The translations under genes were made by a program, and so were the position numbers. Source: Candidatus Binatota bacterium (GTDB lineage: Bacteria > Desulfobacterota > Binatia > UBA1149). Taken from it: a stretch of 64,000 nt of DNA. The notes under the pieces were generated by a model that saw only the letters and a list, made by a program, of their open reading frames with translations, searched no databases and was not told the origin of the DNA. Each line of letters begins with the position of its first letter. Positions within the stretch are counted from its first letter, which is position 1. Shown in pieces: positions 17,867 through 62,176 of the stretch. The stretch spans positions 10,627 through 74,626 of the forward strand of contig DUBO01000038.1 in the NCBI GenBank assembly GCA_012960245.1, in the 5' to 3' direction.

Positions 17867-17882
17867 CGGCACAGCGATTGCA
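17867..17882 (+). promoter_or_regulatory. Sigma-54-type promoter (cGGCAC-agcga-TTGCa) for the FG-GAP/Cys-repeat gene
   Basis: GG-N10-GC spacing. 66 bp upstream of ATG 17948. Confidence 0.5.
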
Positions 17883-17947
17883 ACGTTAAAGGAAAAGAAT
17901 ACAGCGGCGGGAGCCTTACAGGGGCCCCTGCCGGGGGGACAGATAAC

Positions 17948-20900
17948 ATGACCACTGAATACCATTCATCGATTTACCGCAGCGATCCCATGGGCCCAGG
18001 CGCCGCTTGCGTCGCAGTGCGGGGTTTTTCTTTGCTCGCGCTGGCAGTGCTTGCCATCACGCTGACAGCCCAGCAGGCCCAGGCGGTACCGGCCGAGGTC
18101 TCGGCCCAGGCCGTGAGCGGCCACGATTACCTGGGCGGTGGCGCGCTGGCCACCGATTCGGGCCGCGGCGTGGCCGTGGGCGATCTTGACGCTGACGGCT
18201 TTGACGACATCGCCATAGGCGTGCCCGGCAGCGACCACGTGTGCCTTGTACGCGGGCCCATCGCCATGGGAGCAGCGCCCGAAGACGTGAGCGTGCTTTG
18301 CAAAGCCGGCGCCGTCGCGCCCAACGCCTTCCGCATCAACGCACCCACGGCCTTGACGGGCAGCGGCGGTTTTGGCCTGGGCCTTGAGATTGCCGACATC
18401 GACTGCGACGGGCAGAACGACCTCATCATCGGTGACCCACTGGCCGATCCGGTGGCCGGCCTCGCGGGTGGAGTAAAGGTTGATGGCGGTGCCATCCACG
18501 TGCTGCACAAGTCGGCGGGACTTGTGTGGGGACAGGAAATATTTGCCGATAACTGGCGCCTGTACACCGGGGGCAACGGCTACTCGATAATGAGCGGTGG
18601 CGCGCAACTGGAAATGTTCGGCTACCCGGCAGCCGGCGATATAGACAACGACGGACTGGTCGACCTCGTGGTCGGCGCACCCATACACCGCCACGGATTC
18701 GCCCGCGCTGGACGCGTGTACCTGCTTGGAACCGCGGCCGTGGTCGAGTTCAACTTCTGCGCCAACGGCCCCATCAACAATCCCGTCTCCCAGCCCTTGA
18801 GCATCATGGACGGCGCGCCGGCCTGTGGCGGCTCCTGCTCCTGCGTCGCTTCGGCCTGCATCGACATGAAGAAAGACGACGCCTGGTTCGGCCAGGGCAT
18901 TGACGTGGCCGACGTCAATGCCGACGGCATCGACGACCTCGTGGTCGGGTCTCCCAGCGACGGCGTGGCGGTGGAATCGCGCGTGTACATCAAGTACGGA
19001 CCCATAGCGGCTTCGCCCGCGGTCTACCCGGTGGACTTTCCCTCGCCTTATTCCAGCGCCGACAGTTGCATAGGAGACGGCGACGCGGCGTTTGATCGCC
19101 TCGGCACAGACCTGGCCGCCGCCGACTACGACGGTGACGGTAAGCTCGAACTCTACATTGGCGCGCCCTTGTATTCCGGAGGCGGAATGGTCCAGAACGG
19201 CGGCGTCTTTGCGCTGACGGGCGGAAACTACGGCGCCCTGACCACGTCCATATCCACCGCACCCGTGGTCTGGTACGGCAAGGTCAACGACGGTAATCTC
19301 GGCTGGGGCGTAGACCTCGGCGACCTCGATGACGACGGCGCCCTCGATCTCTCGGTTGGCGGCTCGGGCATAGGCGACCCCAACGGCAGCACGCACGTAA
19401 TAAAAGAACCCGCCCCCGACCCCTGCCTGACCCTGGTGTGCAATGACGCCAACGAGTGCACCTCGGACTCCTGCGCGCTGGGCGCCTGCGTGTTCACGCC
19501 GGTGGCCAACGGTACTGCCTGCACCGACGACGGACTTTACTGCACTGGCACCGAGACCTGCCAGGCGGCGGTCTGCACCAGCGCCGGCGACCCCTGCGCG
19601 GGTGGCGCCGAATGCGACGACAGTTGCGACGAAGCAGCTAACAGCTGCGCGGTGGCGGTGAATACAGCCTGCACCAGCGACGGCAACGAATGCACCGACG
19701 ACGCGTGCGACGGCACGGGCGCCTGCGCGCATCCGGCCGTGGCCAACGACACTGTCTGCACCGACGACGGACTTTACTGTACTGGTTCAGAATCCTGCCA
19801 GGCTGGAGCCTGCACCAGCGATGGCGACCCCTGCGTCGGTGGCGCCGAGTGCGCCGACAGTTGCGACGAGGCGGCCAACAGCTGTGACGTGAGTGCGGGA
19901 ACAGCCTGCACGAACGACGGCAACGAATGCACCGACGACCAGTGCGACGGAGCGGGCGCCTGCGCGCATTCGGCCGTAGCCAACGGAACGGCCTGCTCGG
20001 ACGACGGGCTTTACTGCACGGGCACCGAGACCTGCCAGGCCGCGTCCTGCACCAGCGCCGGCGACCCCTGCGCGGGTGGCGCCGAGTGCGCCGACAGTTG
20101 CGACGAGGCGGCCAACAGCTGCGACGTGAGCGCTGGCACCGCCTGCATCGATGACGGCAACGAGTGCACCGACGACGAGTGCGACGGCGCGGGCGCCTGC
20201 GCGCATCCGGCCCTGGCCAACGGAACGGCCTGCTCGGACGACGGGCTTTACTGCACGGGCATTGAGACCTGCCAGGCCGCGGTCTGCACCGGCGCCGGTG
20301 ACCCCTGTTCAGGGCTGGGCGTGTGCTTCAGCTGTGACGAGGCCGCCGATAGCTGCGACGACACCGACGCCGACGGCGACCTGATCTGTGGTCCCGATGA
20401 CAACTGCGCCGCCGAGTACAACCCGGACCAGCTCAACAGTGACTGTCCCCCTGGAGGCACCGACACCGGCTTCGGTGGCATAGACTGCTCGGCTCCCCTG
20501 GGCGCCAACGAAGCGGGCTGCTGTGACGGTGGCGATGTATGCGACGCCTGCCCGGCCAACAACGACAACTCGAAGTGCGACGCCGGCCTGTCGGGCGGCG
20601 AGAGCATCGGGGCCGCAGGAGGCAGCTTCAGCCTCGGTGGCTGTCTAAGCGTAACCATCCCTGCCGGCGCCCTGGCGGCCGACACCAGTATCTCTGTGTC
20701 CACAGGGCTCAACGCTTCGACCAACCCGCTGATAGGCGGCGACCCGATCAAGCTGAAGAAGGCCGGTGGATCGTCAGTTCACAAGTACATAATACTGCCG
20801 CACGGACAGTCATTCCTCGTGCCCATCACGCTGGGATTCTGCTGGGACGACGCCGATAACGATGGCACGGTTGACCTCGGGACCTGTGATCTCGACGCGT

Positions 20901-21820
20901 CGCTGACCTGCGACGACAACGCCGACTGCGGTGCTTTTGCCCCCTGCAACGGTGGCGGGAGCATGGCTGAAAACAACCTGCTGCTGCGCCGCGAGGGCAA
21001 GAACTTTGACTACGCCGGCTTTGGGACTTCGGCGCCCGGCAGTGTCCAGAAATGCGGCGACGCCGAACACCAGAACGTGGGCACCTGCGGGCCCGCCGCG
21101 GCAGTAGCAGACTGCACGGACGCGCCCGGGGTCGACGAAGCCAGCGTGGCCAACTGCTGCGACACGGCCGGCAACTCCTGGCCCTGGCAGACCTGCAACT
21201 TCTCCGAGTACTACTTCGGAGAACTTTCCGGCGACCTTATACCAGGCAAGGGCAGCGAGAAGACCGACTGTCACCTCGAGTGGAGCGTGGTCAATCCTTT
21301 CAACACCGAGGACAAGTACGACAGGAGAGGCCTGCTCAACTACAAGCAGGACTGCACCGATGGTGACGCCAATTGCGACAAGGACGGCGAAGCCAACGGG
21401 GTGTGTATCTTCGAAATCGGCCTTTGCCTGAACGTCGACGACAGTCGCCTGTTCGACAAGAAGACCCTCGACCCGGTCTGCACCCCGACAGCGACCGACC
21501 TGTTCCAACTCAAGAAACCCCGGCCCAACAGTCGCAAGCTGCACGAGGCCGAGGCGGCCGAGGCGCTGCTGGCCGCGGTGATGGAGCTCGACGTGGAGGC
21601 AACGATCGGTGGCCGCAGGCTCAACGAGGTGACCTTCTCGGGTCTCGGCTACGACAACGGCGACGCCTGCACCAATACATTCCAACTCGAGGTGCCGCTC
21701 AACGGACGCTCCAAGGCCAAGGGCAAGCTCAAGGCCGGCGTAGAAACCGTAGCCTCGGAAACCCTGCGCGCAACCAAGGACAAGGACACGCTCAAGTTTA
21801 CCTGTTACAGCAGCGAGTGA
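17948..21820 (+). CDS. Large secreted FG-GAP (integrin-alpha-like) repeat protein with tandem Cys-rich 79-aa repeats and thrombospondin-type-3-like Asp-rich segment
   Basis: Signal peptide (LLALAVLAITLTAQQAQA). >=6 FG-GAP-like units (GDLDADGFDDIAIGVPG, ADIDCDGQNDLIIGDP, GDIDNDGLVDLVVGAP...). Repeats NGTACTDDGLYCTGTETCQAAVCTSAGDPCAGGAECxDSCDEAANSC. Then DTDADGDLICGPDDNC. Confidence 0.8.
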   Translation: MTTEYHSSIYRSDPMGPGAACVAVRGFSLLALAVLAITLTAQQAQAVPAEVSAQAVSGHDYLGGGALATDSGRGVAVGDLDADGFDDIAIGVPGSDHVCLVRGPIAMGAAPEDVSVLCKAGAVAPNAFRINAPTALTGSGGFGLGLEIADIDCDGQNDLIIGDPLADPVAGLAGGVKVDGGAIHVLHKSAGLVWGQEIFADNWRLYTGGNGYSIMSGGAQLEMFGYPAAGDIDNDGLVDLVVGAPIHRHGFARAGRVYLLGTAAVVEFNFCANGPINNPVSQPLSIMDGAPACGGSCSCVASACIDMKKDDAWFGQGIDVADVNADGIDDLVVGSPSDGVAVESRVYIKYGPIAASPAVYPVDFPSPYSSADSCIGDGDAAFDRLGTDLAAADYDGDGKLELYIGAPLYSGGGMVQNGGVFALTGGNYGALTTSISTAPVVWYGKVNDGNLGWGVDLGDLDDDGALDLSVGGSGIGDPNGSTHVIKEPAPDPCLTLVCNDANECTSDSCALGACVFTPVANGTACTDDGLYCTGTETCQAAVCTSAGDPCAGGAECDDSCDEAANSCAVAVNTACTSDGNECTDDACDGTGACAHPAVANDTVCTDDGLYCTGSESCQAGACTSDGDPCVGGAECADSCDEAANSCDVSAGTACTNDGNECTDDQCDGAGACAHSAVANGTACSDDGLYCTGTETCQAASCTSAGDPCAGGAECADSCDEAANSCDVSAGTACIDDGNECTDDECDGAGACAHPALANGTACSDDGLYCTGIETCQAAVCTGAGDPCSGLGVCFSCDEAADSCDDTDADGDLICGPDDNCAAEYNPDQLNSDCPPGGTDTGFGGIDCSAPLGANEAGCCDGGDVCDACPANNDNSKCDAGLSGGESIGAAGGSFSLGGCLSVTIPAGALAADTSISVSTGLNASTNPLIGGDPIKLKKAGGSSVHKYIILPHGQSFLVPITLGFCWDDADNDGTVDLGTCDLDASLTCDDNADCGAFAPCNGGGSMAENNLLLRREGKNFDYAGFGTSAPGSVQKCGDAEHQNVGTCGPAAAVADCTDAPGVDEASVANCCDTAGNSWPWQTCNFSEYYFGELSGDLIPGKGSEKTDCHLEWSVVNPFNTEDKYDRRGLLNYKQDCTDGDANCDKDGEANGVCIFEIGLCLNVDDSRLFDKKTLDPVCTPTATDLFQLKKPRPNSRKLHEAEAAEALLAAVMELDVEATIGGRRLNEVTFSGLGYDNGDACTNTFQLEVPLNGRSKAKGKLKAGVETVASETLRATKDKDTLKFTCYSSE
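19506..20330 (+). repeat. Intragenic near-identical tandem DNA repeats, 237-bp unit (~3.5 copies), encoding the 79-aa Cys-rich repeat
   Basis: gccaacgg/acnnn...tttactgcac unit recurs at ~19506, 19743, 19980, 20217. The ORF track shows near-identical antisense mini-ORFs at 237-bp offsets (19537-19761, 19774-19983, 20011-20220). Confidence 0.8.
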
Positions 21821-21831
21821 GCCTGCAGCCG

Positions 21832-21862
21832 CGCCGGCCGAAACCAGGCCGACGCGGCTACG
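21832..21862. terminator. GC-rich hairpin between convergent genes (possible bidirectional terminator)
   Basis: gccgcgccggcc-gaaacca-ggccgacgcggc nested stems. No clear T-tract. Confidence 0.3.
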
Positions 21863-21874
21863 GCCGCGGGTCGT

Positions 21875-22852
21875 TCAGACCAGCGGCACTACCTCGCGCA
21901 TAAATCGGCGTGCCTGCGAATCCTCACCGCCGGCGTCGCAGAGGTCCTGGAACCAGCAGATCACCAGCGACGCGCCCCGCTCGGTAAAAAACCTTATCTC
22001 GGCCGCGATGTCTTCGGCCCGGCCCGTCCAGCAATTGGCCAGGAACTTGGTGAGTTGTTTTTCGTTGTAGTGCGGCCACCAGCGTGCGGCAAAATCACGT
22101 AGCTCGGCTTCGCTCTCGTAGATCACGCAGGTGTTCTCCACCGATATGCGCACGCTGTCGGGGTCGCGGCCGCGGTCGCGACAGTGCCCTGCAAGGATCT
22201 CGCGCTTGCGCTCGTACTCGTCGGGCCCGCGGTTATGGTTCCAGCCGTCGGCCACTTCGGCCACCATGCGCAGGCCGACTTTTTCGCCCTGCGTGCCTAT
22301 CCATATCGGGGGCCCCCCGGCCTGCAGCGGCTTTGGCTCGTTTATGGCGTCGGTCACCCGGTGGTGCACACCCTCCACGGTGGCTTTCTCGTCTGCGAAC
22401 ATCGCCCGGCAGATGCGCGCCGTATCCTCCATGCGGTCGAGCCGCTCGCGTATGCCGGCAAACGGGTACTCGTAGGCCTCGAACTCCTCGGTTTTCCAGC
22501 CGGCGCCTAAACCCAGGTCGACCCTGCCGCCGCTCATCACGTCCACGCAGCTGGCGAGCTTGGCGAGGTAAGCCGGGTTACGGTAGGCGCTGCAGGTCAC
22601 CAACTGTCCCAAGCGCACTCGGCTTGTCACCTGCGAGAGAGCGGCCATCGTACTCCAGCACTCGAAGGTTGGCTCCATGGCCGGGCGCGGCACGGTGTGA
22701 AAGTGGTCGTACAACCACAACGAGTCGTAGCCAGCGTCTTCAAGCGCGCGCGCACTCGCGGTCAAGGCATTCCACTGGGACTCGCCGCCCTGGAGATGCT
22801 GCATCTCCATGCGCCAGCCCTGCGGCACGAACGTTCCATATTCAACGGCCAT
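21875..22852 (-). CDS. Luciferase-like monooxygenase (LLM) family flavin/F420-dependent oxidoreductase
   Basis: LLM fold hallmarks: N-terminal GxF...W..DH..., GLGAGW. Confidence 0.75.
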   Translation of the reverse strand: MAVEYGTFVPQGWRMEMQHLQGGESQWNALTASARALEDAGYDSLWLYDHFHTVPRPAMEPTFECWSTMAALSQVTSRVRLGQLVTCSAYRNPAYLAKLASCVDVMSGGRVDLGLGAGWKTEEFEAYEYPFAGIRERLDRMEDTARICRAMFADEKATVEGVHHRVTDAINEPKPLQAGGPPIWIGTQGEKVGLRMVAEVADGWNHNRGPDEYERKREILAGHCRDRGRDPDSVRISVENTCVIYESEAELRDFAARWWPHYNEKQLTKFLANCWTGRAEDIAAEIRFFTERGASLVICWFQDLCDAGGEDSQARRFMREVVPLV

Positions 22853-22901
22853 GACGGTTAGTTAGGCGAGCGCCCCCGCTCTGGCAATCAGGCGGCCCGC
22901 T

Positions 22902-24479
22902 TCAAGGGCGAACCGTATGACTGGTGGGCCCCACCAGCGTGGCCAGGCGCGGCTGTATCCACTCCACCCAGCGGCACAGGCGCTCGCGGGTTTCGGCGGG
23001 CTCGATGAGATCGTGCACACCGAAGGACTCGGCGCGCGGAAACGGCGTGCGCGAGGCGGCGAACTGTTCCTCGAGCTCGCTGCGAAGGGCGTCGGGATCA
23101 TCGGCGGCGGCTATCTCGCGTCCGAAGGCCACCGCCACGCCACCCTCGACGGGCAGCGCGCCGCTCTCGGCCGAGGGCCAGGCCAGCACGTACGAGTCCG
23201 GGCCGAAATGGGCCGCGGCGGCCACGCCGAAGGCCTTGCGCAGGTGAACCGCCGCCCAGGGCACCGATGACTGGTTGGCCGCAAATATGGTCTGCGCGCC
23301 GTAGCGGATGGTGCCGGCCGCCTCGGCACCGGTGCCTATCATGAAACCGGGCTCGTCGACCAGGCTGATGATGGGCAGGTGAAAGCTGTCACAGAGGTCA
23401 ATGAAACGCCTGGCCTTCTGCGCCCCGTCGGCGTCCATCGCGCCAGCCCAGAAGCGGCAGTCGTTGGCCCACACGCCCACCGCCTGCCCGTCCAGTCGCG
23501 CCAGGCCGGTGACCTGCGAAGGCCCGTAGCCGGCCGACATCTCGAAGAAACTGCCCGCGTCAAATACCAGTTCCAACACCCGCCTGATGTCGAAGGCCTT
23601 GCGACGGTCGCGCGGGATGATCGAGTTGAGTTCGCTTTCGGCCCGGGATGGATCGTCGTCGCAGGCCACCCGGGGCGCCGGCTCCCAGACGTTGGTGGGC
23701 AGGTAGGAAAGAAAGCGCCTTACCTGCGCCAGCGCACCCGCTTCGTCGTCGGCCAGGTTGTCGACCACGCCGCTGTGCATGTGCACGGCCGCACCGCCGA
23801 GTTCTTCCTTGGTTTTCTTCTCGCCCAGCGCGCGCTCAACAACCGCCGGCCCGGCGATGAGCACCTGGGATGTATCGCGCACCATTATGGAAAAGTGAGA
23901 AGACACCAGGCGCGCAGCCGGGAAACCCGCCACCGGCCCCAGTGCCACCGACACCACGGGCACCGCCGCCATGGCCTCGGCAAACGACATGAACCTGGGC
24001 GTAACGTAAACCGGATCGCCGGCGTGGGCTCCGCCGCCACCCTTGCCCGCGTTCTTGCCGCCACGTGTTCCGGCCACGCTGCCGCCGCCGCCCTCGAGCA
24101 GGCGCACCAGGGGCACCCGGTACTGCACGGCCAGTTGCTCGGCGTAGACGCTCTTGCGCAGGCCGGCCGGCGTGGGCGACCCGCCCTTGAGCGTGAAATC
24201 CTCGCCCCCTACCACGCAGGGCCGACCGTCCAGGCGCGCCATGCCCAGCACGTAGTTGCCCGGCGTGAATTCGACCAGGCGTCCCTCGTCGTCGATCTCG
24301 GAGTGACCGGCCATCGGGCCCTGCTCGGCGAAGCTCCCCTCGTCGACCAGCACGTCAATGCGCTCGCGCACCGTCAGGCGGCCCTTGCCGTGCTGACGCT
24401 CAACGGCCTCGGCGCCGCCCATGGCCAGCGCGGCCTCGCGGCGCGCCCGTATCCCCTCGGTTTCCTTGTCCCAGCCCAC
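22902..24479 (-). CDS. Acyl-CoA carboxylase carboxyltransferase subunit (propionyl-CoA carboxylase beta-like)
   Basis: Carboxyl-transferase domain: GKGRLTVRERIDVLVDEGSF ... GGEDFTLKGGS ... two-lobed CT architecture. Confidence 0.8.
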   Translation of the reverse strand: MGWDKETEGIRARREAALAMGGAEAVERQHGKGRLTVRERIDVLVDEGSFAEQGPMAGHSEIDDEGRLVEFTPGNYVLGMARLDGRPCVVGGEDFTLKGGSPTPAGLRKSVYAEQLAVQYRVPLVRLLEGGGGSVAGTRGGKNAGKGGGGAHAGDPVYVTPRFMSFAEAMAAVPVVSVALGPVAGFPAARLVSSHFSIMVRDTSQVLIAGPAVVERALGEKKTKEELGGAAVHMHSGVVDNLADDEAGALAQVRRFLSYLPTNVWEPAPRVACDDDPSRAESELNSIIPRDRRKAFDIRRVLELVFDAGSFFEMSAGYGPSQVTGLARLDGQAVGVWANDCRFWAGAMDADGAQKARRFIDLCDSFHLPIISLVDEPGFMIGTGAEAAGTIRYGAQTIFAANQSSVPWAAVHLRKAFGVAAAAHFGPDSYVLAWPSAESGALPVEGGVAVAFGREIAAADDPDALRSELEEQFAASRTPFPRAESFGVHDLIEPAETRERLCRWVEWIQPRLATLVGPTSHTVRP

Positions 24480-24538
24480 GGACTGGTTTTAGCAAACCCC
24501 GGCCGTGATGAAAGGCCGCGTCATTTACCCACCTCTTT

Positions 24539-27340: not shown

Positions 27341-27567
27341 GCCGTAAGGCCCCCTTTACCCATCGGCCGCGGCCCAGCGCGGGGACGGGAGTGTCCGGGC
27401 ACGCTAATAAACTTTTACCCGTACGGCAATGCCAACGACGCCGGTAACGGGTTACAGGCGCTTATTGCCCGCGTACGCCTGCTGGGAGACGAAAACACTG
27501 TTGGCGCAACCGGGGGGTAGCCGTTCAGGCACCCGCCAGGCGGCCCTTGCCGGCACCCCCATCCCCC

Positions 27568-27596
27568 TTGACATATATACCCCCCGGGGGTATATT
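27568..27596 (+). promoter_or_regulatory. Sigma-70-like promoter (TTGACA -17 bp- TATATT) whose spacer is a perfect 20-bp palindrome ATATACCCCC|GGGGGTATAT, a CsoR-type operator. Implies leaderless or near-leaderless csoR.
   Basis: Read directly at 27568-27596. Palindrome 27576-27595 ends 8 bp before ATG 27603. Confidence 0.65.
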
Positions 27597-27602
27597 CCCG
27601 GC

Positions 27603-27890
27603 ATGGACGATGAGACCCGCAAGAAGGTTCTGACCCGGCTCAACCGGGCCGAGGGGCAGGTGGCGGCCCTGCGGCGCATGGTGGAGCAGGACACCTACTG
27701 CGTGGACGTGCTCACCCAGGTCGCGGCCGCCCAGGGCGCGCTCGGGCGCGCGGGCGAGATGATACTGTCGAACCACATCGAGACCTGCGTCAGCCACGCG
27801 TTTGAAAGCGGCAGCGCCGACGACCGCGCGGCCAAGGTAGACGAGCTGATGGAAGTGTTCTCGCGCTACAGCCGCATAGGGGCGCGCTGA
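27603..27890 (+). CDS. csoR: CsoR/RcnR/FrmR-family metal-sensing transcriptional repressor
   Basis: LTRLNRAEGQVAALRRMVEQDTYCVDVLTQ...NHIETCV: Cys-His-Cys W-X-Y-Z ligand pattern of the CsoR family. ATGA overlap with downstream permease. Confidence 0.8.
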   Translation: MDDETRKKVLTRLNRAEGQVAALRRMVEQDTYCVDVLTQVAAAQGALGRAGEMILSNHIETCVSHAFESGSADDRAAKVDELMEVFSRYSRIGAR

Positions 27891-29086
27891 TGGTTTTCCT
27901 GGCCGAAGCCTGGGGCGTGATGCTCTCGCTGGCACCCTGGCTGCTGCTGGGCGCCGTCGTGGCCGGTCTGCTGCACGTCGCGCTCCCGGCCGGCTTCGTA
28001 CACCGCGAGCTGGGCGGGCGGCTGGGCGTTCTCAAGGCCGTCGCGCTGGGCGTGCCGCTGCCGCTTTGTTCCTGCGGAGTCATCCCCGCCGCGCTGGGGT
28101 TACGTCGCGACGGCGCCGGTCGCGGTGCCACGGTTGGATTCCTGATAAGCACGCCGCAGACCGGTGTTGACTCGGCCCTGGTGAGCGCGTCGTTCCTCGG
28201 CTGGCCCTTTGCCCTGTTCAAGATAGCGGCGGCCGCGGTCACGGGCATAGCCGGCGGTTACCTGGCGGGCGCGGTTTCGCCGGGAGCCGTACAAGGCGAC
28301 GAACAACAGTCGCCCGACGAACAGGCCGAGCGCAGCCTGCGGGGAATGGCGTCACACTCGATCAGTATCCTGCGCACCATATGGCGCTGGATCGCCGTGG
28401 GCGTGCTGGCGTCGGCCGCAATCTCGACCTGGGTACCGCCGGGCTCACTGGCCGGGCTGGGCAGCATGGCCTCTATGCTGGCGGTGCTGGCCGTGTCGGT
28501 GCCGCTGTACGTGTGCGCGACCGGCTCGGTGCCCATAGCCGCGGCCCTGGTTGCCGGTGGCCTGCCCGCGGGCAGCGCGCTGGTATTTCTCATGGCTGGC
28601 CCGGCCACCAACGTGGCCACCATCGGTGCCGTCTACCGGGCGCTGGGTGGCCGCACGCTGGCCGTGTACCTGGGCACCATCGTTGTCGGATCCATTGCAG
28701 CCGGCCTGCTGTTCGACTCGCTGCTGCCCGTGGGAGCCGCTGCCCTGCCCCACCACGGCAACGGGCCGGCCTGGTGGGAACTGGGCTCGGCGTTGCTGCT
28801 CACGGGAGTGCTCGCGTGCTTTGCCGTGGGCGAACTGCGCACGGCGCTTACCCGGGCCATGACCTCGCGCAGGACGGCCGACCTCGAGCTGACCGTCGAA
28901 GGCATGACCTGCAACAACTGCCGCACGCGACTGGAGACAGCGCTGCTGGCGACACCGGGCGTCAAATCGGCGGTCGTCGTGCTCGAGCCGGGCGGCGCCA
29001 GCGTATGGGGCGATGTCGACGAGCAAAAGGTCCGCGAAGCGATAAGCGAGGCCGGCTACACCCCCCTGCCGGCCACGGGTGACTGA
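27890..29086 (+). CDS. ArsP_1/DUF318-type permease fused to C-terminal heavy-metal-associated (HMA) domain
   Basis: Polytopic membrane protein with LPLCSCGVIP and VPLYVCATGSVP motifs (ArsP/DUF318 family). C-terminal GMTCNNC HMA motif. Confidence 0.65.
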   Translation: MVFLAEAWGVMLSLAPWLLLGAVVAGLLHVALPAGFVHRELGGRLGVLKAVALGVPLPLCSCGVIPAALGLRRDGAGRGATVGFLISTPQTGVDSALVSASFLGWPFALFKIAAAAVTGIAGGYLAGAVSPGAVQGDEQQSPDEQAERSLRGMASHSISILRTIWRWIAVGVLASAAISTWVPPGSLAGLGSMASMLAVLAVSVPLYVCATGSVPIAAALVAGGLPAGSALVFLMAGPATNVATIGAVYRALGGRTLAVYLGTIVVGSIAAGLLFDSLLPVGAAALPHHGNGPAWWELGSALLLTGVLACFAVGELRTALTRAMTSRRTADLELTVEGMTCNNCRTRLETALLATPGVKSAVVVLEPGGASVWGDVDEQKVREAISEAGYTPLPATGD

Positions 29087-29092
29087 CTGCCG

Positions 29093-35725: not shown

Positions 35726-35805
35726 GACGTCTCCCTTGCGCGCCAGCGGCGCCGACAAGGTGTCGCCGTCTCAGGTCGCAAAGGCAACCGGCGCGCCAGC
35801 CGTGG

Positions 35806-48386: not shown

Positions 48387-48433
48387 GACCCGAGGCTATC
48401 CTGATCGCCGCCGCCAATCTATAGTCGGCAACA

Positions 48434-50998: not shown

Positions 50999-51060
50999 GG
51001 GCGCAATCTACGCCCTGGCACTCGCCCTCGCAACGCAGCTGCCCTGCCGGGTTCCCAGCT

Positions 51061-52725: not shown

Positions 52726-52743
52726 CAGTTTCTTTCCGTCGCC

Positions 52744-53829: not shown

Positions 53830-53880
53830 ATACTATCTCCTCCAAGCGGCCCGTGGACCGGTGCCCCGACAGGAGACCAC

Positions 53881-54915: not shown

Positions 54916-54946
54916 ACGCCGCTTCCGCACGAGGCACAAAAAGGTA

Positions 54947-54973
54947 ACCCCGGGCTCCTTGTGAGAGCCCGGG
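54947..54973. terminator. Perfect 10-bp-stem hairpin (CCCCGGGCTC-cttgtga-GAGCCCGGGG) between convergent genes; likely bidirectional terminator
   Basis: Read directly. Lies 32 bp after the dehalogenase stop and 57 bp after the minus-strand gene stop. Confidence 0.55.
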
Positions 54974-55029
54974 GCGTCGGGGGCCGGTGGGGTGTTGCCG
55001 GCCGGTGGGGAAAACGGGTAGCCGCCAGC

Positions 55030-55728
55030 CTACTGGCACACGCAGAATGCCGCCACTGGATCGCCTACGAACGTGCACTGCTTGGTGGTATCGGCGCAAT
55101 CGCCACCGCAGGTGGGAGCGCCTGACTGTTCGCAGGGATCGCTCTGCTCGGGCTCGCATCGGCAAGCCAGGGTACCGGCTATATTCGTGCACACGTCGGT
55201 CGGATTGGGGCAGTCGCCGTTACAGGTCGGGGCACCGGACTGTTCGCAGGGGACCGGCTGGTCGAACACCTTCCAGGCGGGCGTGCACATCTTGGTGGTC
55301 CTGAAACCGGCGATCTCGCGCTGGCCAAACTGGTCAACCACGTCCTGGGCACTGGGCGGCATCGCGCCAGTAGGATCCTTGGGGCAGCGGATCTTGTAGC
55401 AGAGAAAGTCGTTGGTCAGGTCCTGGCCAACCACGTCCTCGTGCGGGGCATCGCGCTTGTTGTTGGGCTGCATGATGCGATCTTTATTGACCGGCAGGCA
55501 GAACTCCTTGCTCTTGACCATTATCCTGCAGCCGGCTTCGCTCGGGTACATGGATTGGTCAGAGTTTGTGATGAGATCGGCTACCGCCGAGTACCTGTGA
55601 GAATCCTTGATCTTGTAGCACTTCAGGTGGTCGTTGACGTTCTGGGCCTGCGAGATTGCGGGCAGCGCCAGGGCCAGGAAAGCTACGGTTACTGTTGCTG
55701 TTACTATTGCTGTGATTGCCTTGTTCAT
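55030..55728 (-). CDS. Small secreted Cys-rich protein with C-terminal 2x 6-Cys module (PCEQSGAPTCxGDC...C.C) shared with the BNR protein
   Basis: Signal peptide MNKAITAIVTATVTVAFLALALPAISQA. KCYKIKD / LCYKIRCPKDP motifs. C-terminal tandem Cys module. Confidence 0.7.
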   Translation of the reverse strand: MNKAITAIVTATVTVAFLALALPAISQAQNVNDHLKCYKIKDSHRYSAVADLITNSDQSMYPSEAGCRIMVKSKEFCLPVNKDRIMQPNNKRDAPHEDVVGQDLTNDFLCYKIRCPKDPTGAMPPSAQDVVDQFGQREIAGFRTTKMCTPAWKVFDQPVPCEQSGAPTCNGDCPNPTDVCTNIAGTLACRCEPEQSDPCEQSGAPTCGGDCADTTKQCTFVGDPVAAFCVCQ

Positions 55729-55773
55729 GTCGATTCCTCCGTCGGCGGCGCGGGTTGAGCCCGCGCCGGCATG

Positions 55774-55789
55774 CCCCTGTCAAAGCAAC
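55774..55789 (-). promoter_or_regulatory. Sigma-54 promoter, exact consensus TGGCAC-agcag-TTGC (read on minus strand)
   Basis: Plus strand gcaactgctgtgccaa. 45 bp upstream of start 55728. Confidence 0.6.
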
Positions 55790-55828
55790 TGCTGTGCCAA
55801 TCGGTAACGGCCCGGAAACCCTGTAAAC

Positions 55829-55865
55829 ACGGGCTCTAACCGGGGCTGTGCTGCTAACGTAAGTT
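55829..55865. promoter_or_regulatory. Copy A of the recurrent upstream element: CCGGGGCTGTG-N12-GTTAGCGCTCGAAG, with internal GCTAAC-gtaa-GTTAGC palindrome
   Basis: Identical 10-nt and 14-nt blocks to copy B at 62218-62253. ~65 bp upstream of the -24 box. Confidence 0.55.
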
Positions 55866-55930
55866 AGCGCTCGAAGGGCGGTAGCGTGTGGGTGGGTTTG
55901 CAGCGGAGCACCCGGATGCGCCGCCGGTCT

Positions 55931-56986
55931 CTAGAGCGAGAAAATACCCAGTAGCAGGCCACAACCGGTGAGAGCCATCAGGGGGCCATCACAGGTATGC
56001 GGGCTCACGGCTTCGGCAAGCGTCAGCCCAAGGGGAATAACGGCCACCGCCACCAGGAATTGTTCGGGCGTAAACACCGGGACGGCCGACAGGAACTGGT
56101 ATCCACACAGCACCACGACCGAAACGATAAACACCGTCGCACTACCCTCCAGGGATCGTACGAACTGCCCACTCCAGATACGCCCGTTGTGCCACAGGGC
56201 CTTGGTGCGGTACTTGTGCTTGCCGAAACGGATACCCACCGGTTCGGCGAGGCCGTCACCAAATTCGTTTATCAGTTGCGGCACGAGAACGATGAAGGGA
56301 TTGGCGACCAGCGCCATGAAAGGCAGGTATACGGCGAAACGAAACACGTCCTCGAGCATGTCATAACGCAGGGAATATGGCCTATCCTCCAGCCGATCCC
56401 ACGAAACGAACGCGTACCGGAACAACGCGACCCGGCGCCGAACGCGATGATACTCGAGCCCTATGGTTTTCAACTGGCCGAGGCAGAACAGGAACGCTAT
56501 GTCGATAATCACCTTGTCGCCGCTTACTATGAGAAGCGGGATCACGAAGGCCGAGAGCTTCTTTACGGGGCGAAGAATCAGTTTGCGGACGTAATTGATC
56601 CGAACTCGGTGCCGCATCACGAGCCATGATGCGAAGAGTTTACCCGCGACTTCGACTACGATCGAGATGCCAAAAAAAGCCATTGCCGCCGTGTTAAGTG
56701 CCGGGAGTACGCCGACAGCCCCCAGTACCCCAAGCGTGGCGGCTACAGCCAGGTAAAACGGACCAAGTACGGCTACGAATCGGTCCTCGCCCCTCCAGTC
56801 ATAGGCCTCGTTCTCCAGCCCGTAAGGATCGGCATACAGGCGGGCGAAATAGCCGTCCCGCGACTGGTGTACTGTCTCCTGGGATACCGGCCCTTCCCGC
56901 GTGATCGCCACCGCGGCCAAAGCGGCCCCCGGATACAGTGCCGCGTCGTTACCGGTCGGCTCGTTGGCAGTGCTGGTCCTTGTCAT
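55931..56986 (-). CDS. Integral membrane protein, CTP-dependent polyprenol/phytol-kinase-like (dolichol kinase/CDS superfamily)
   Basis: C-terminal FGDGLAEPVGIRFGKHKY...LEGSATVFIVS resembles the DGxAxxxGxxxGxxK...EGSxxxF motif of the CTP_transf_1/phytol-kinase family. ~7 TM. Confidence 0.45.
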   Translation of the reverse strand: MTRTSTANEPTGNDAALYPGAALAAVAITREGPVSQETVHQSRDGYFARLYADPYGLENEAYDWRGEDRFVAVLGPFYLAVAATLGVLGAVGVLPALNTAAMAFFGISIVVEVAGKLFASWLVMRHRVRINYVRKLILRPVKKLSAFVIPLLIVSGDKVIIDIAFLFCLGQLKTIGLEYHRVRRRVALFRYAFVSWDRLEDRPYSLRYDMLEDVFRFAVYLPFMALVANPFIVLVPQLINEFGDGLAEPVGIRFGKHKYRTKALWHNGRIWSGQFVRSLEGSATVFIVSVVVLCGYQFLSAVPVFTPEQFLVAVAVIPLGLTLAEAVSPHTCDGPLMALTGCGLLLGIFSL

Positions 56987-57074
56987 AACTTGCTCCCCAC
57001 TGTCTTCTTGAACGACCCGATGCTGATGTCAGTCGGACCCAGACCCGCAACAGGACGAGCTCAATATACAAGTA

Positions 57075-57089
57075 CTGCAACTCGTGTGC
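57075..57089 (-). promoter_or_regulatory. Sigma-54 promoter, exact consensus TGGCAC-acgag-TTGC (minus strand)
   Basis: Plus strand gcaactcgtgtgcca. 89 bp upstream of start 56986. Confidence 0.6.
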
Positions 57090-57133
57090 CAGTAGGAAAT
57101 TGGCACAAAAACGGGCTCCCGCCGAGACCGGAT

Positions 57134-57153
57134 GCAAACCAGGGTTAGCCCTA
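57134..57153. promoter_or_regulatory. Copy D of the recurrent upstream element (aaaccaGGGTTAGCCctagg)
   Basis: Matches the aaacccaGGTTAGCGC core of copies B and C. 53 bp upstream of the -24 box. Confidence 0.4.
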
Positions 57154-57233
57154 GGAGGCCCGGACCGCCTTCCTGGCTTAGCACTGGCCGACGTGGAGGC
57201 GCCGCTTAGCGGGCCCAGCTGGAGGATAGAAAA

Positions 57234-57458
57234 ATGATAAAACTCTGTTTCTGCGTACACCGGTTGCCGTCGCTCACGCGCGAGCAGTTCCAGGATTACT
57301 GGCACTCGACCCACGCGGCGCTGTTAAAGCGCCACGCCGAGGTCCTCGGCACAGAACAGGCGCAGGCTGCCGTCGCAGAGTTGATCGAAGACGAGCATCG
57401 ATTTGCAGACCTGTCGCGCTCGCCCATATTCCTGGCCGAAGAACGGCAGATCCTGTAG
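57234..57458 (+). CDS. EthD/Dabb-like small alpha+beta-barrel protein (hypothetical)
   Basis: MIKLCFCVHRLPSLTREQFQDYWHSTHAAL resembles the EthD N-terminus. 74 aa. RBS ggagg. Confidence 0.45.
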   Translation: MIKLCFCVHRLPSLTREQFQDYWHSTHAALLKRHAEVLGTEQAQAAVAELIEDEHRFADLSRSPIFLAEERQIL

Positions 57459-57484
57459 CGGCCGGCGGTAAGGAGAAAATCACG

Positions 57485-58285
57485 ATGGACTACGAGCAGA
57501 TCACCTACGAAGTACGCGACCAGGTGGCACTGATCACGCTTGACCGGCCCGACAAGCTCAACGCGTGGACGCCACAGATGAGCGAGGAGCAGGCCCACGC
57601 CGTCGCGCGCGCCAACGCCGACAACGCTGTGGGTGCCATCGTCACGACCGGTGCCGGCCGCGGTTTTTGCGCTGGCGCCGACATGGGCGACACCTTCCAG
57701 TCGCGCATAGACGGTGTTGACCCCGGCCACAACACCCAGGACGGATCGGGAGGAATGCCCGCAGGCCTCGACTGGGTGGCGCTGGTGCGCGAGTCCAAGC
57801 CCATGATTGCCGCGGTCAACGGCGCGACCGTCGGCATCGGGCTTACCATGCTGCTGCCCTTCGACGTCATACTGGCGTCGGACAAGGCGCGCCTGGGCAT
57901 GGGCTTCATCAAGATGGGGCTGGTGCCCGAGCTGGCCAGCACCCATTTCCTGGTGCAGCGCATGGGCTTTGGCCGCGCATCGGAGATGTGCCTTACAGGT
58001 CGCCTTTACAAGGCCGACGAGGCACTGGAGGCCGGCCTGGTGGACCGGGTCGTGGCTCACGACGACCTCGTGGCCGCCGCCCTGCAACTGGCCGGCGAGA
58101 TCGCGGCCAACCCCGTGCCGCAGTTGCTCATGACCAAGCGGCTACTGACCGAAAACGGCAGCGCCACCGACCTCACCCTGGTGCAGGAGTCGGAGAGCGC
58201 CTTGCTGCGCGAGTGCTGGAAGACACCCGAGCACGCCGAGGCGGTGGCGGCTTTTATCGAGAAACGACCACCGCGTTTTCGCTAG
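57485..58285 (+). CDS. Enoyl-CoA hydratase/isomerase (crotonase) family protein
   Basis: ITLDRPDKLNAW ... GAGRGFCAGADM oxyanion-hole motifs. Confidence 0.85.
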   Translation: MDYEQITYEVRDQVALITLDRPDKLNAWTPQMSEEQAHAVARANADNAVGAIVTTGAGRGFCAGADMGDTFQSRIDGVDPGHNTQDGSGGMPAGLDWVALVRESKPMIAAVNGATVGIGLTMLLPFDVILASDKARLGMGFIKMGLVPELASTHFLVQRMGFGRASEMCLTGRLYKADEALEAGLVDRVVAHDDLVAAALQLAGEIAANPVPQLLMTKRLLTENGSATDLTLVQESESALLRECWKTPEHAEAVAAFIEKRPPRFR

Positions 58286-58342
58286 CCCGACCATCCACCA
58301 TTTTCAGACAAGGACGTCGTAAGAGACCCCGTCCAGCTGCAG

Positions 58343-61300
58343 CTACTGGTCCAGCTGGCGAACCCTGTGTATTACCGCTTCGATTGTCACCGGCACGGGA
58401 CAGTTAACAATATGCCGAGCGTCGCTTGGCGAATTCGGATGCTCAAAATCATAGTTGTCAGACCCCACATTTGGCGGTGGCGGGAATTCAAGGACTTCCA
58501 ATTTACCCTCGGCCCTGAGCCGCTGAATCTGCTTGACCCCTTTAAGGACCTCGCTCGCCGGCTCCTTCCAGTGAGCAAAACCGATGTGCCACATCGGACT
58601 GTAATCGTCCTCTGGCCTAAAGTAGGAGGGCACTCCCACCTGGCTGCCGAACGGGCCACCACCCAGGAATCCAAAACCGTCGCTTGGCGTCGGTGGATAG
58701 GTTGGATCTATCGGCGCTGGGGGCAGCGACTGGATCAGGGGAACTCCGACGCTTCCAAGGTTCTTATACATTGGTACATAGGGGACTCCCATCGCCCTTG
58801 CCGGACCAAATGGATAGGTGTCCAGGACTATGTAGTAGGGAAGATAATCACCTTCTCCCGCCCAAGCCTTGTGAAGCTTGAAGGTGATCGACGGATCTGG
58901 TCCGACCGTGTCCAGTGCCAGCACATGCCCCGATGCGTCCCTGTCACCCCAGAATTCACCGTTGTAAAAACAAGTCGAGTTGGGAGGTTCATCTGGAAAA
59001 CTGACACAACTCAGGTCAATCCGATTGTGATGCCATTCCTCGTCGCCCCACTTTGCAAACACGGCATTAACGATAACATCCTGCCCGTCAATCGTGACTC
59101 GACGCAAAGGCGAATACGTATTCAGGTCATCAACGTCTGGAATTAAATCCGGATTCTTGCAGGGTCTTCCCGAACCGGAATCGATACCATCAGACACCCT
59201 GCAAGCCGGCGAGGCCCATATCGGATTGGGCACGTTCCCGTAAAACGTCCAGTGACCCGTAACTGGATCAATGGTTGCATCCCCGGTAGCCGCTATTGGC
59301 GTGCCGGTTAATTTACCAGCCCAGGCCAGGCCCATTTCCTCGGCCAGGGCTTCGTCGCTGATGTCGTGCAGGAAGAACCATACGGGGGTCAGTACGCCGC
59401 CGTCGTCGTTCGTTCCCTGCATCAGCGGGAAGGTAATGGTACCGCGTTCGTTGGGCTGCGGGTCAAGGGCGTCGCCGAGCGGAATATCCCTTATGTCGTC
59501 TAACTCGCCGATTACCGCCCCATCCACCCAGATATCCACAGGGTCAACCTGCGGTCCGTATTCGCCAACAGCGTCTCCGGTTCTGTATGTAGGCAGTGCG
59601 TGGGTGTCCACGTAGCTTACCCCGTCCCACGAGGGGATAGGTGTCGGCATGACCAGGGTCTGCCCCGGATGCTCAATATCCCAGCGCAACAGCATGGCGT
59701 GGTCCTCGTGCTGCGTGTTGTGGCAATGCTCCATGAAGGTGCCCGCGAACTCCCGGAAGCGAAGTGCGATCTCCACCATCACCCCACTGTCGGCCTGTGG
59801 TCCGAGCCGGTACACGTCCTTGCGAGCCCACTTTTCCCACTCGGGCGGCTCCTGGCCGTCACGTCTCAGTATGATCCCCTCCTCAAAGTGGATGTGTATC
59901 GGGTGGCTCCAGGTTCCGCTGTTGAGAAGGCGCCAGACCTCCAGCCCACCGGAATTTTTCTCGGGAGCCGCAGATAGACGGCGGGGGTCCATTCCGAACC
60001 CCTTGCCGCCATCGGTCTCTATGACCCAGGGGCGATCGTCGGTGGGCTGCCTCTCAAATTCAAAGGTGCGGTGAAGAGCCGCGTCCAGCTCTGCCTGCGC
60101 GGGCATCTGGATGGGGATCATCTTCTGCCCGCCGGCCACGTAGTCCATTGGATCAAGACTGTTGTCGACCCCGGCGTACTCGGTAACACGGAACTCCATG
60201 AATTTACCTACAACCGGGTCACCGTCGATCCAGCGGTCGGCAATGCCATCGGGGGGAACCGTGTCGTCGATGGTAACCGGTGCGTAGGCTCCGCTTACGA
60301 TATCGGCCAGGGGAATCACTTCGTCGGTGACTTGCCCGTTCTTGTGTTGCAGCAGGTTGACCAGGTACAGCTTGTCACCCGGTTCGAAGTTGGCAAAGTC
60401 GATGATGACGTCGTAGCGTTCGGCTATGCCGAGGGTCGGCAGCTCGCCGTTACTGAACTCCACGGCGTGCTCCATGATGTTGCCGTCGTTGGCAACCATG
60501 TGGAACGGGACCGGGTTGCCGGCCTCGTCGACCAGCGCCAGCTTGAAGTAGCGAGATACCGAGGCATTCAGGACGCGGAAGCGGTACCGGCGGGCACGAA
60601 CGTCGAAGTAAGGCTTGTACAGCCAGTTAACGGTCATAACGTCGCCGAGAAAGCCTTTCTGGTTGAAGGGGTTAAAACACAACTGCCCGTCACCATCAAA
60701 GGCTTTCTCTGCCAGCATCAGGTTGACGTCGTAATCGCGGTTGCCCCAGGGCAGCGCGGATCCACTGGGCAACCTCAGGTTGATGCCGTCATTGACGGAT
60801 TCGTTGCCGCGATCGAGTGAACTGTAATAGTTCATCATCGCGGCGCTGCCCTTGTAGACGTTCTGGGCAGTGAAATCGAGCATGTGATCGTGGAACCAGT
60901 GGGTGCTCATGGTCTCGTGCCAGTCGCCCTTGATCCGCTTTATGCCTCCGTTGCCCATGGGCATCCCTGCCCTTTTATCCCTCTTATTCGTATTGATGGA
61001 GTCGTGTCCTGCGAGCACCATCGGCCACCTGTAGTCGTAGAACTGGCCGGGAAAGAAAAACGCGTTGGCGAACCCGTCGCTCTCAGCCGGGTTATGGCCG
61101 TTGTGCTCGTGGGTGGTCAGCGTGTGAACACCGAAACCACGGTTCTCGGCGACGTCGATCGGTAACGCATTGTAGTGGCGCATTACCAGGGGCTCGCCAT
61201 AACGCGCGGTGAGCAGCTTGGGGGGAAAAGTTCCGTCGAAAGTCCACACCGCGTCCGGATCCTGCAAAGGCATGCTGGCATGAAACCGGACCTCGATTCC

Positions 61301-62083
61301 CGACGTCGTGCCATCGGATCCAGCTGGTTCCGCGGTTGAATGATACAGTCCTGTGGGCCCGAATTCACCGTGCCTGTAGCGATGCCTCTGAGCTCTATCA
61401 CGCAGGCCGCGATTCTCCCGACCACCGGTTGTCGCAGTCTTGAAGTAAACCCTGGGCTTGAACTCATCCCACCGCTGGTGTGCCCATCCTTCCCCAGGCG
61501 GTCGTCCTTCGATCGGGGGGTCGTCAAGATCGCGGCCCAACCATGATTCAATCTTCGACTCCCACGGATTCTCGTCCGAGGTATTCGCCTTGCGCTTGGG
61601 GATAGGCCATACCCGGGCTTTCAAAAACTTATCCAGTTTTACTGAACGCGGATAAGCCTGGGGGTTGGCTGGTTTGGGTAGCCGTTTATGTTTGGGGCTA
61701 TCTTCGGCATGAATTCCACGCTTTGTGGTCCCAAATTCTTCCAATCGCAACATTTTCTGGCTGAAAGGCGTTGCGCCAAAAAGCGGACTCGGTGGGTAAT
61801 CGGTTGGCACGTTGAAGGTGCCAGAATCCCGCTGGGCAGTCACCGGTATGGCATTCTGCTCGCGGGTGTCTTCGGGGGTTCCAGTCAAGCCCCCCTCAAA
61901 ACTCCCCTCGTTTGCCTCGGGCAAACCCTCTGGCAGATCTCCCACGATCGGACCCGCACACGCCGAAGGATCTCCGGAAGGCGGGCACTGGGCATGCAGC
62001 GTCGGTGGGAAAAAACACGCAATGGCCAGAAAAAATAACGAACAATACAACCCTGGAAAACAATACCTACTAACTCGTCTCAT
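58343..62083 (-). CDS. Large secreted multicopper oxidase (1246 aa) with ~480-aa C-terminal extension beyond the T1 copper site
   Basis: Signal peptide. Four Cu-ligand motifs in order: HTLTTHEHNGH, WFHDHMLD, HPIHIHFEEG, HCHNTQHEDHAM(L). Confidence 0.85.
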   Translation of the reverse strand: MRRVSRYCFPGLYCSLFFLAIACFFPPTLHAQCPPSGDPSACAGPIVGDLPEGLPEANEGSFEGGLTGTPEDTREQNAIPVTAQRDSGTFNVPTDYPPSPLFGATPFSQKMLRLEEFGTTKRGIHAEDSPKHKRLPKPANPQAYPRSVKLDKFLKARVWPIPKRKANTSDENPWESKIESWLGRDLDDPPIEGRPPGEGWAHQRWDEFKPRVYFKTATTGGRENRGLRDRAQRHRYRHGEFGPTGLYHSTAEPAGSDGTTSGIEVRFHASMPLQDPDAVWTFDGTFPPKLLTARYGEPLVMRHYNALPIDVAENRGFGVHTLTTHEHNGHNPAESDGFANAFFFPGQFYDYRWPMVLAGHDSINTNKRDKRAGMPMGNGGIKRIKGDWHETMSTHWFHDHMLDFTAQNVYKGSAAMMNYYSSLDRGNESVNDGINLRLPSGSALPWGNRDYDVNLMLAEKAFDGDGQLCFNPFNQKGFLGDVMTVNWLYKPYFDVRARRYRFRVLNASVSRYFKLALVDEAGNPVPFHMVANDGNIMEHAVEFSNGELPTLGIAERYDVIIDFANFEPGDKLYLVNLLQHKNGQVTDEVIPLADIVSGAYAPVTIDDTVPPDGIADRWIDGDPVVGKFMEFRVTEYAGVDNSLDPMDYVAGGQKMIPIQMPAQAELDAALHRTFEFERQPTDDRPWVIETDGGKGFGMDPRRLSAAPEKNSGGLEVWRLLNSGTWSHPIHIHFEEGIILRRDGQEPPEWEKWARKDVYRLGPQADSGVMVEIALRFREFAGTFMEHCHNTQHEDHAMLLRWDIEHPGQTLVMPTPIPSWDGVSYVDTHALPTYRTGDAVGEYGPQVDPVDIWVDGAVIGELDDIRDIPLGDALDPQPNERGTITFPLMQGTNDDGGVLTPVWFFLHDISDEALAEEMGLAWAGKLTGTPIAATGDATIDPVTGHWTFYGNVPNPIWASPACRVSDGIDSGSGRPCKNPDLIPDVDDLNTYSPLRRVTIDGQDVIVNAVFAKWGDEEWHHNRIDLSCVSFPDEPPNSTCFYNGEFWGDRDASGHVLALDTVGPDPSITFKLHKAWAGEGDYLPYYIVLDTYPFGPARAMGVPYVPMYKNLGSVGVPLIQSLPPAPIDPTYPPTPSDGFGFLGGGPFGSQVGVPSYFRPEDDYSPMWHIGFAHWKEPASEVLKGVKQIQRLRAEGKLEVLEFPPPPNVGSDNYDFEHPNSPSDARHIVNCPVPVTIEAVIHRVRQLDQ

Positions 62084-62161
62084 AATTTATCCCCCTGCAG
62101 AGATGAAAAAAAACATGGCTAACTTAACTAAAATCCCCGTCAAGGGTGTAATCCAGAACAA

Positions 62162-62176
62162 GCAACTTGTGTACCA
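62162..62176 (-). promoter_or_regulatory. Sigma-54-like promoter TGGtAC-acaag-TTGC (minus strand) for the multicopper oxidase
   Basis: Plus strand gcaacttgtgtacca. GG-N10-GC preserved, one mismatch in the -24 box. 79 bp upstream of start 62083. Confidence 0.45.

Follow-up and report, generated by a model that had tools for sequence, protein, structure and literature searches.

Are four genes for exported and membrane proteins, spread over 64,000 nucleotides (nt) of a Binatota genome, wired to a single regulatory circuit? The DNA in question, which we refer to as the window, is the whole 64-kb stretch from positions 10,627 to 74,626 of contig DUBO01000038.1 (GenBank assembly GCA_012960245.1, Candidatus Binatota bacterium). 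An earlier note on its sequence had proposed that -24/-12 elements of the sigma-54 (RpoN) type precede genes coding for a giant FG-GAP/Cys-repeat protein, a small Cys-rich secreted protein, a polyprenol-kinase-like membrane protein, and a multicopper oxidase, and that these form an RpoN regulon. Binatota are uncultured, and a literature search found no description of gene regulation in them. The regulon proposal gains support from the position and strand of the sites, a shared and phased upstream palindrome, signs of selection, a fifth promoter of the same design in a related genome, and the lack of a credible sigma-70 alternative. We read the four sites as sigma-54-dependent promoters that one bacterial enhancer-binding protein (bEBP) probably activates through the palindrome GCWAAC-N4-GTTWGC, and give this reading a probability of roughly 0.77; the regulon of one such protein, rather than merely a set of RpoN promoters, is the most likely arrangement.

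Both strands of the window were searched for TGGCAC-N5-TTGC, exactly and with at most one mismatch. There are two exact matches, both on the minus strand (promoters A and B; Table 1), compared with 0.27 expected, and only 1 of 100 shuffles reached two. These are the two exact-consensus elements of the earlier note; the sites themselves are real, but the positions given for them (55774-55789 and 57075-57089, with no strand) were 2 to 10 nt off. Two single-mismatch sites that retain GG-N10-GC had also been claimed, and both are present, as TGGTAC..TTGC (promoter C) and CGGCAC..TTGC (promoter D). All four sites thus have GG and GC doublets 10 nt apart within TGGCAC-N5-TTGCW, two exactly and two with one mismatch, all have the full TTGCW, and in all of them the base after TGGCAC is A, where G is usual.

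Placement is more telling. With genes called from codon-position GC content and Pfam scans, four of the nine matches with at most one mismatch are intergenic, on the correct strand, and 30 to 130 nt 5' of a start codon, for which only 1.8% of window positions and strands qualify (binomial P = 1.3e-5). The distance from the -12 end to the start codon is 57 nt (A), 91 nt (B), 79 nt (C), or 67 nt (D), in keeping with the earlier statement that the elements lie shortly upstream of four genes, and a Shine-Dalgarno sequence precedes the start codon in each case. That note had also stated that such elements occur nowhere else convincingly in the window, and the other five matches agree with this: four are intragenic, and the only intergenic one (35784-35798, TGGCGC) is followed by a start codon after just 26 nt and lacks a palindrome upstream.

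Reading of the upstream DNA reveals a 16-bp palindrome, GCWAAC-N4-GTTWGC, at all four promoters, which we designate a candidate upstream activating sequence (UAS); promoter D has two degenerate copies, UAS-D1 and UAS-D2. The offsets from the palindrome nearest each promoter to its -24 element are 58, 69, 69, and 80 nt, advancing in 11-nt steps of about one helical turn, which places the palindrome on one face of the helix at each promoter. Extra half-sites (GCAAAC, GCTAAG, and GCAGAC) are present 21 to 43 nt further upstream at all four promoters and are possible auxiliary sites, although this is suggestive only. With at most two mismatches, GCWAAC-N4-GTTWGC has 10 matches in 64 kb, of which 5 are upstream of the four promoters, and none of the other five has a GG-N10-GC element within 140 nt. 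The related pattern GCTAAC-N4-GTTNNC, with at most one mismatch, has 8 matches versus 2.5 expected, a number reached in none of 100 shuffles. A composite of a -24/-12 match (at most one mismatch) with a palindrome (at most three mismatches) 40 to 100 nt upstream occurs four times in the window, versus a mean of 0.11 and a maximum of 2 in 300 dinucleotide-preserving shuffles. In scans of the wider sequence collection, 19 of 23 noncoding-like matches have offsets of 58-59, 68-71, or 78-80 nt, but the wider phasing is only suggestive, with a noisy split between coding and noncoding matches and orthologues that are not independent.

The same promoters are found by a pattern scan of reference genomes at ~93 to 94% nucleotide identity in 'Candidatus Binatia bacterium CB21_323.63' and 'bacterium UBP10_UBA1149'; UBP10 corresponds to the phylum Binatota, which includes UBA1149 as an order known from hydrothermal settings (PMC8262859). 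Genome and metagenome scans together provide 13 sequences for module A (the promoter with its palindrome) and 7 distinct versions of module B. We compared 22 functional columns per module, comprising 12 half-site and 10 -24/-12 bases, with all remaining columns of the region that runs from 70 nt before the palindrome up to the start codon. Variation affects 1 of the 44 functional columns of modules A and B, compared with 87 of 405 others (Fisher one-sided p = 5e-4), and the sole functional change, TGGCAC to TGGTAC in promoter B orthologues, is the variant that promoter C itself carries. The -24/-12 bases of promoter A are invariant in all Binatota variants that cover it, changes in UAS-A are confined to the N4 spacer, and UAS-B is the same in all 7 distinct variants. 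Six further Binatota loci were scanned, and the palindrome is present at every near-consensus site that keeps TTGC. The column comparison is moderate evidence of purifying selection on the -24/-12 and palindrome bases.

A fifth example, promoter E, comes from UBP10_UBA1149. Relative to the window, this genome has an insertion carrying a gene for a 982-aa multicopper oxidase, 53% identical to target C and followed by a SCO1-cytochrome c gene. An exact TGGCAC-N5-TTGC element, TGGCACAGCCTTTGC, is 23 nt before the oxidase start codon, and a palindrome, GCTAAGTCAGGTTTGC, starts 58 nt upstream of its -24 element. The flanks of promoter E are unrelated to those of promoter C. It is therefore no copy of C, and the design occurs twice before a gene of this kind.

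The composite motif also recurs beyond the Binatota. Desulfobacterota-like genomes and metagenomes have it before a gene for a YeiH-like (Cons_hypoth698) membrane protein at five loci; the palindrome offset is 79-80 nt, except for 69 nt in a diverged locus. A bEBP gene with REC, AAA+ (GAFTGA), and HTH domains, the last with a helix reading '...SGLSRVALQK...', is 1.3 to 2.6 kb from the site at L032, L054, and L079, and the YeiH-like loci with an activator have a second, tandem palindrome ~26 nt upstream of the first, the DNA between them not being conserved. At a further locus (L011), a GAF-AAA+-HTH activator with a similar recognition helix is encoded directly upstream of the site. Because the pattern itself selected these loci, what they establish is limited to the recurrence of the motif combination beside activator genes and does not extend to orthology with a putative Binatota activator. 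The scans also returned other sigma-54-type arrangements. In Solidesulfovibrio and relatives (five loci), a gene for a methyl-accepting chemotaxis protein is preceded by a conserved sigma-54 promoter, TGGTACGGTCCTTGCT, with GCTAACC-N3-GTTTGCA at 78 nt and a direct repeat, GTTAC-N6-GTTA, adjoining the -24 element. Two metagenome contigs, L060 (5693 onward) and L080, have a tandem array of ~29-nt units, TTGGCACGATTCTTGCAAGGGAAGGGAAC, each with a perfect sigma-54 -24/-12 consensus.

Table 1. Predicted promoter elements, palindromes, target genes, and associated features (window positions)
Feature	Coordinates	Strand	Description
Promoter A -24/-12	55785..55799	-	TGGCACAGCAGTTGC; exact consensus, then T; predicted start ~55773
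Promoter B -24/-12	57077..57091	-	TGGCACACGAGTTGC; exact consensus, then A; predicted start ~57065
Promoter C -24/-12	62162..62176	-	TGGTACACAAGTTGC; one mismatch, then T; predicted start ~62150
Promoter D -24/-12	17867..17881	+	CGGCACAGCGATTGC; one mismatch, then A; predicted start ~17893
UAS-A	55853..55868	-	GCTAAC-TTAC-GTTAGC; perfect; starts 69 nt upstream of -24
UAS-B	57134..57149	-	GCTAAC-CCTG-GTTTGC; starts 58 nt upstream of -24
UAS-C	62230..62245	-	GCTAAC-CTGG-GTTTAC; starts 69 nt upstream of -24
UAS-D1	17787..17802	+	GAAAAC-CCAG-CTTAGC; degenerate; starts 80 nt upstream of -24
UAS-D2	17744..17759	+	GCAAAC-CAGG-CTTGGC; starts 123 nt upstream of -24
Auxiliary half-site at promoter A (possible)	55896..55901	-	GCAAAC; 102 nt upstream of -24, 33 nt upstream of UAS-A
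Target A	55030..55728	-	232-aa secreted protein; signal peptide, N-terminal domain with LKCYK motifs, two Cys-rich C-terminal repeats
Target B	55931..56986	-	351-aa polytopic membrane protein; putative CdsA/polyprenol-kinase-like fold
Target C	58343..62083	-	1246-aa exported multicopper oxidase (Cu-oxidase_2 + DUF7482)
Target D	17948..21820	+	1290-aa exported protein; FG-GAP and Cys-rich repeats, signal-peptide-like N-terminus
Terminator-like hairpin after target A	54947..54975	-	GC-rich hairpin and T-run
SCO1/SenC-cytochrome c-PCuAC fusion gene	62500..63888	-	Upstream of UAS-C; not driven by these promoters

Several points weigh against the reading of these sites as one sigma-54 regulon. The window, the ~8 kb past its right end, and the related Binatota loci fetched yielded no rpoN and no bEBP gene, so that sigma-54 is an assumption for this genome; open reading frames with the GAFTGA and Walker A motifs of a sigma-54 activator are likewise absent from the window and from every Binatota locus fetched, and the activator may be encoded elsewhere in the genome. 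The number of -24/-12 matches with at most one mismatch (9, compared with 6.5 expected) is not significant by itself. The palindrome consensus was derived from the same sites, which makes the window statistics partly circular; this applies to those statistics and not to the tests on other sequences. As the compared sequences are close relatives (~93 to 100% identity), the evidence for selection is moderate and not deep, and the other copies found of modules C and D are all identical, so their conservation is uninformative. A search with the N-terminal 500 aa of target D returned no orthologues, only repeat proteins with 25 to 31% identity. Deep conservation cannot corroborate the wiring, since distant homologues of targets B and C lack such promoters. 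Promoters A and C share extra flank similarity and may be copies, which reduces their independence. Lastly, site D is the least certain of the four, with a -24 element that begins with C in place of T and with degenerate palindromes.

The strongest of the rival explanations is that only the clustered promoters A, B, and C (55.8 to 62.2 kb) are real and that site D is a chance match, which we regard as unlikely. Site D begins with CGG where the consensus has TGG, each of its palindromes departs from the symmetric consensus at two positions, it is 38 kb from the others, and it draws no help from conservation. Against this, the site lies between genes on the coding strand of the next gene, whose start codon follows after 67 nt. 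Palindrome-like sites are expected about once per 10 kb, and site D has two within 125 nt. The offsets of these palindromes, 80 and 123 nt, are in phase with the other sites, and 14 of the 16 bases of UAS-D2 agree with those of UAS-B read as its reverse complement.

A second alternative, that a sigma-70-family holoenzyme transcribes these genes, with the palindrome serving as an ordinary repressor or activator site and the -24/-12 match incidental, is very unlikely. It draws on a weak match, CTGGCA-18-TATATT (9/12), overlapping site B, and on the absence of rpoN and bEBP genes from the sequences covered. A scan for the sigma-70 consensus finds nothing at A, C, and D, however, and the -10 element at site B loses its final T in orthologues that keep GG-N10-GC; neither these doublets nor their flanks vary. 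A palindrome 80 to 100 nt upstream of the start is typical of enhancers and not of operators, and the same palindrome adjoins bEBP genes elsewhere.

Common descent of duplicated promoter or gene cassettes, the shared sequences being remnants of copying and not signs of coregulation, is highly improbable as a full account. The promoter A module (55735-55923 in the window) with the first ~150 codons of its gene occurs in at least two genomic contexts in related genomes, the copies being near-identical in promoter, 5' untranslated region (5'UTR), and N-terminal coding sequence. Six assemblies have contigs that stop within the module (~55814-55875 in window coordinates). This marks a repeated unit that breaks assemblies, and a second copy probably exists outside the window. 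Moreover, A and C resemble each other around the palindrome beyond the motif (CTTCGAGCGCTAAC ... CACAGCCCCG). In contrast, B, D, and the UBA1149 promoter E share with the others only the palindrome and the -24/-12 bases, and the shared bases stay invariant while the rest of the module drifts. Duplication and function are also compatible, as a regulon can grow by promoter copying; duplication accounts for part of the A-C similarity and not for B, D, or E. Chance occurrence of all four matches in a GC-rich genome, to which the unremarkable near-consensus count lends itself, is effectively refuted by their placement, the composite count, the conservation test, and promoter E.

The sigma-54 regulon remains our preferred reading, and a conventional mechanism can be proposed for it. 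A signal would activate the bEBP, whose dimers would bind the palindrome and assemble into an AAA+ ring, perhaps helped at D, and possibly at other promoters, by a second, weaker site. With the palindrome at 58, 69, or 80 nt on the same helix face, the ring could reach the closed sigma-54 holoenzyme over a short DNA loop, and ATP hydrolysis would open the promoter. Each promoter would then drive one gene for an exported or membrane protein: the oxidase, the CdsA/polyprenol-kinase-like enzyme, the Cys-rich secreted protein with interchangeable C-terminal modules, and the FG-GAP/Cys-repeat giant. Together the four products could represent an inducible cell-surface or extracellular program in this marine Binatota (order UBA1149) bacterium.

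All four targets are single-gene units, with either a convergent gene or the next promoter module lying downstream, and the terminator-like hairpin after target A would make that unit monocistronic. The palindrome, or the hairpin near site C, was considered as a terminator and rejected, in that the stems are short, contain AT pairs, and lie upstream of genes, not after them. A separate C10-N16-G10 hairpin (62440-62475, minus strand) is 25 nt 3' of the stop codon of the SCO1-cytochrome c-PCuAC gene and just upstream of the candidate oxidase enhancer site; it has no T-run and is thus not a canonical terminator. An Rfam search of the window found no RNA family, so the 5'UTRs match no riboswitch or leader family known to Rfam.

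Three of the product identities in the earlier note stand, with the giant confirmed by Pfam scan, the small Cys-rich protein having a signal peptide, and the oxidase retaining all four copper-ligand motifs (HEHNGH, WFHDH, HPIHIH, and HCHNTQHEDHAM). The oxidase, target C, matches Cu-oxidase_2 and Cu-oxidase_3 as well as bilirubin oxidase, CotA, and CueO (E values down to 6e-35), and from these sequence features is a genuine multicopper oxidase, with the SCO1/SenC-cytochrome c-PCuAC fusion as its predicted copper-delivery partner. Contigs of several assemblies, one of them a Guaymas Basin metagenome, code for an identical oxidase protein. Target A has a conserved 155-aa N-terminal domain and a C-terminus that varies across strains and paralogues: among the copies in the window and four other loci, the C-termini consist of two Cys-rich repeats, four to five Cys-rich repeats, or a CARDB domain, the Cys-rich-repeat form being that of the window and one other locus (L070) and CARDB that of the other copies. 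Synteny with CB21_323.63 breaks inside this gene at ~55263, and an exact look-up of the 232-aa protein returned no record. Target D contains internal tandem repeats (19445-20360, plus strand), ~234 nt apart with 81 to 84% DNA identity, which encode Cys-rich CTDDGLYCTG... units. No NCBIfam or TIGRFAM model for PEP-CTERM or other sorting signals matches the targets, and direct reading of their C-termini shows no such tail; a PEP-CTERM/exosortase PrsK-PrsR sigma-54 system was accordingly rejected.

Among target B homologues, identity drops from 94% to at most 58%, in marine Planctomycetota and Myxococcota bins, and among target C homologues from 100% to 72%, in Thalassomonas, Polaribacter, Alteromonadaceae, and others, where the oxidase gene is always paired with a SCO1-cytochrome c-PCuAC gene. 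None of six distant loci (three for target B and three for the oxidase) has a -24/-12 site upstream, which makes the wiring lineage-specific. The GC content is 57 to 60% across 56 to 64 kb, the oxidase and kinase-like region, compared with ~65% elsewhere. Together with closest non-clade homologues in other phyla, this suggests that the oxidase and kinase-like genes were acquired horizontally and placed under the circuit within the lineage.

The surrounding DNA codes for functions of other kinds. A separate metal-response unit (27429-29086, plus strand), in which a CsoR/RcnR-type repressor gene directly precedes that of an ArsP-type permease fused to a heavy-metal-associated domain, has no sigma-54 site. 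Positions 1 to 55000 are dense in enzymes of lipid and xenobiotic oxidation, including several luciferase-like monooxygenases, two P450s, TauD and PhyH dioxygenases, SDRs, an acyl-CoA dehydrogenase, a CoA-transferase, and a sulfatase, a set that fits the hydrocarbon-degrading lifestyle proposed for Binatota. Some 5 to 9 kb past the right end of the window (L001, 1060-4527) is a gene for a 1155-aa protein with no Pfam match and no sigma-54 site, truncated or rearranged in some assemblies, in a region that also has DUF1214, sulfotransferase, and acetoacetate-decarboxylase-family genes.

The locus provides a concrete regulatory unit, with an enhancer motif, fixed geometry, five example promoters, and coherent exported targets, and an example of foreign genes, a widespread 1250-aa marine multicopper oxidase and its neighbors, apparently wired to a resident sigma-54 circuit. 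If the activator and its signal are found, the inducing conditions could be inferred, which would help to assign the oxidase substrate, whether metal, phenolic, or other. The population is present in a Guaymas Basin plume metagenome, and this plume is a setting of rapid enzymatic Mn oxidation. A broader scenario, which we consider quite unlikely, is that a phylum-spanning bEBP family reads GCWAAC-N4-GTTWGC at ~58, 69, or 80 nt and that in plume and sponge Binatota it captured acquired oxidases, a lipid-carrier enzyme, and modular Cys-rich surface proteins for an inducible metal-oxidation or mineral-matrix program, for example, Mn(II) oxidation.

Among known systems, the general likeness is to sigma-54 promoters activated by the NtrC family, with GG-N10-GC, TGGCAC and TTGCW flanks, a dyad ~80 to 100 nt upstream of the start, occasional second sites, and face-of-helix spacing. 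The classical consensus is YTGGCACGrNNNTTGCW (quoted in PMC3707914 from Barrios et al. 1999), from which the Binatota sites differ in having A and not G after TGGCAC; they also differ from classical promoters in that the short spacers between palindrome and promoter contain no evident AT-rich IHF-like site. We could match GCWAAC-N4-GTTWGC to no characterized bEBP, and the palindrome is absent from the text of the Desulfovibrio vulgaris sigma-54 regulome paper. A close counterpart in arrangement is the Desulfobacterota-like YeiH-like promoter, with GCTAAC-N4-GTTWRC 69 to 80 nt upstream of TGGCAC-N5-TTGC and a second tandem palindrome, although the phylum and target differ and the activator is encoded next door.

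In Myxococcus xanthus, CorSR includes a sigma-54-dependent response regulator of the curA copper-tolerance cluster, to which the multicopper oxidase CuoA belongs (PMC3707914). Both systems have several sigma-54-type promoters in one cluster and envelope products that include a multicopper oxidase, but the M. xanthus cluster contains the regulator genes and a copper ATPase, whereas the Binatota targets are single-gene units with no adjacent regulator or efflux genes; no sensor kinase, sigma-54 response regulator, or copper ATPase of the CorSR/curA type was found in the window or 8 kb beyond. In Pseudomonas putida GB-1, IHF/sigma-54 promoters are predicted for mnxG and mcoA, which are under two-component regulation by MnxS1/S2-MnxR (PMC11930936, PMC8218464). 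Large exported multicopper oxidases behind sigma-54-type promoters, with an associated SCO-family copper chaperone gene, are common to both; in a different phylum, the Binatota locus has no two-component genes nearby and has nonoxidase surface proteins in its putative regulon. For sigma-54 specialists, this is a clean new example of an ordinary kind of bacterial control circuit and not a surprise: the phylum, the specific enhancer motif with its quantized spacing, and the target set are new, and the overall design is conventional.

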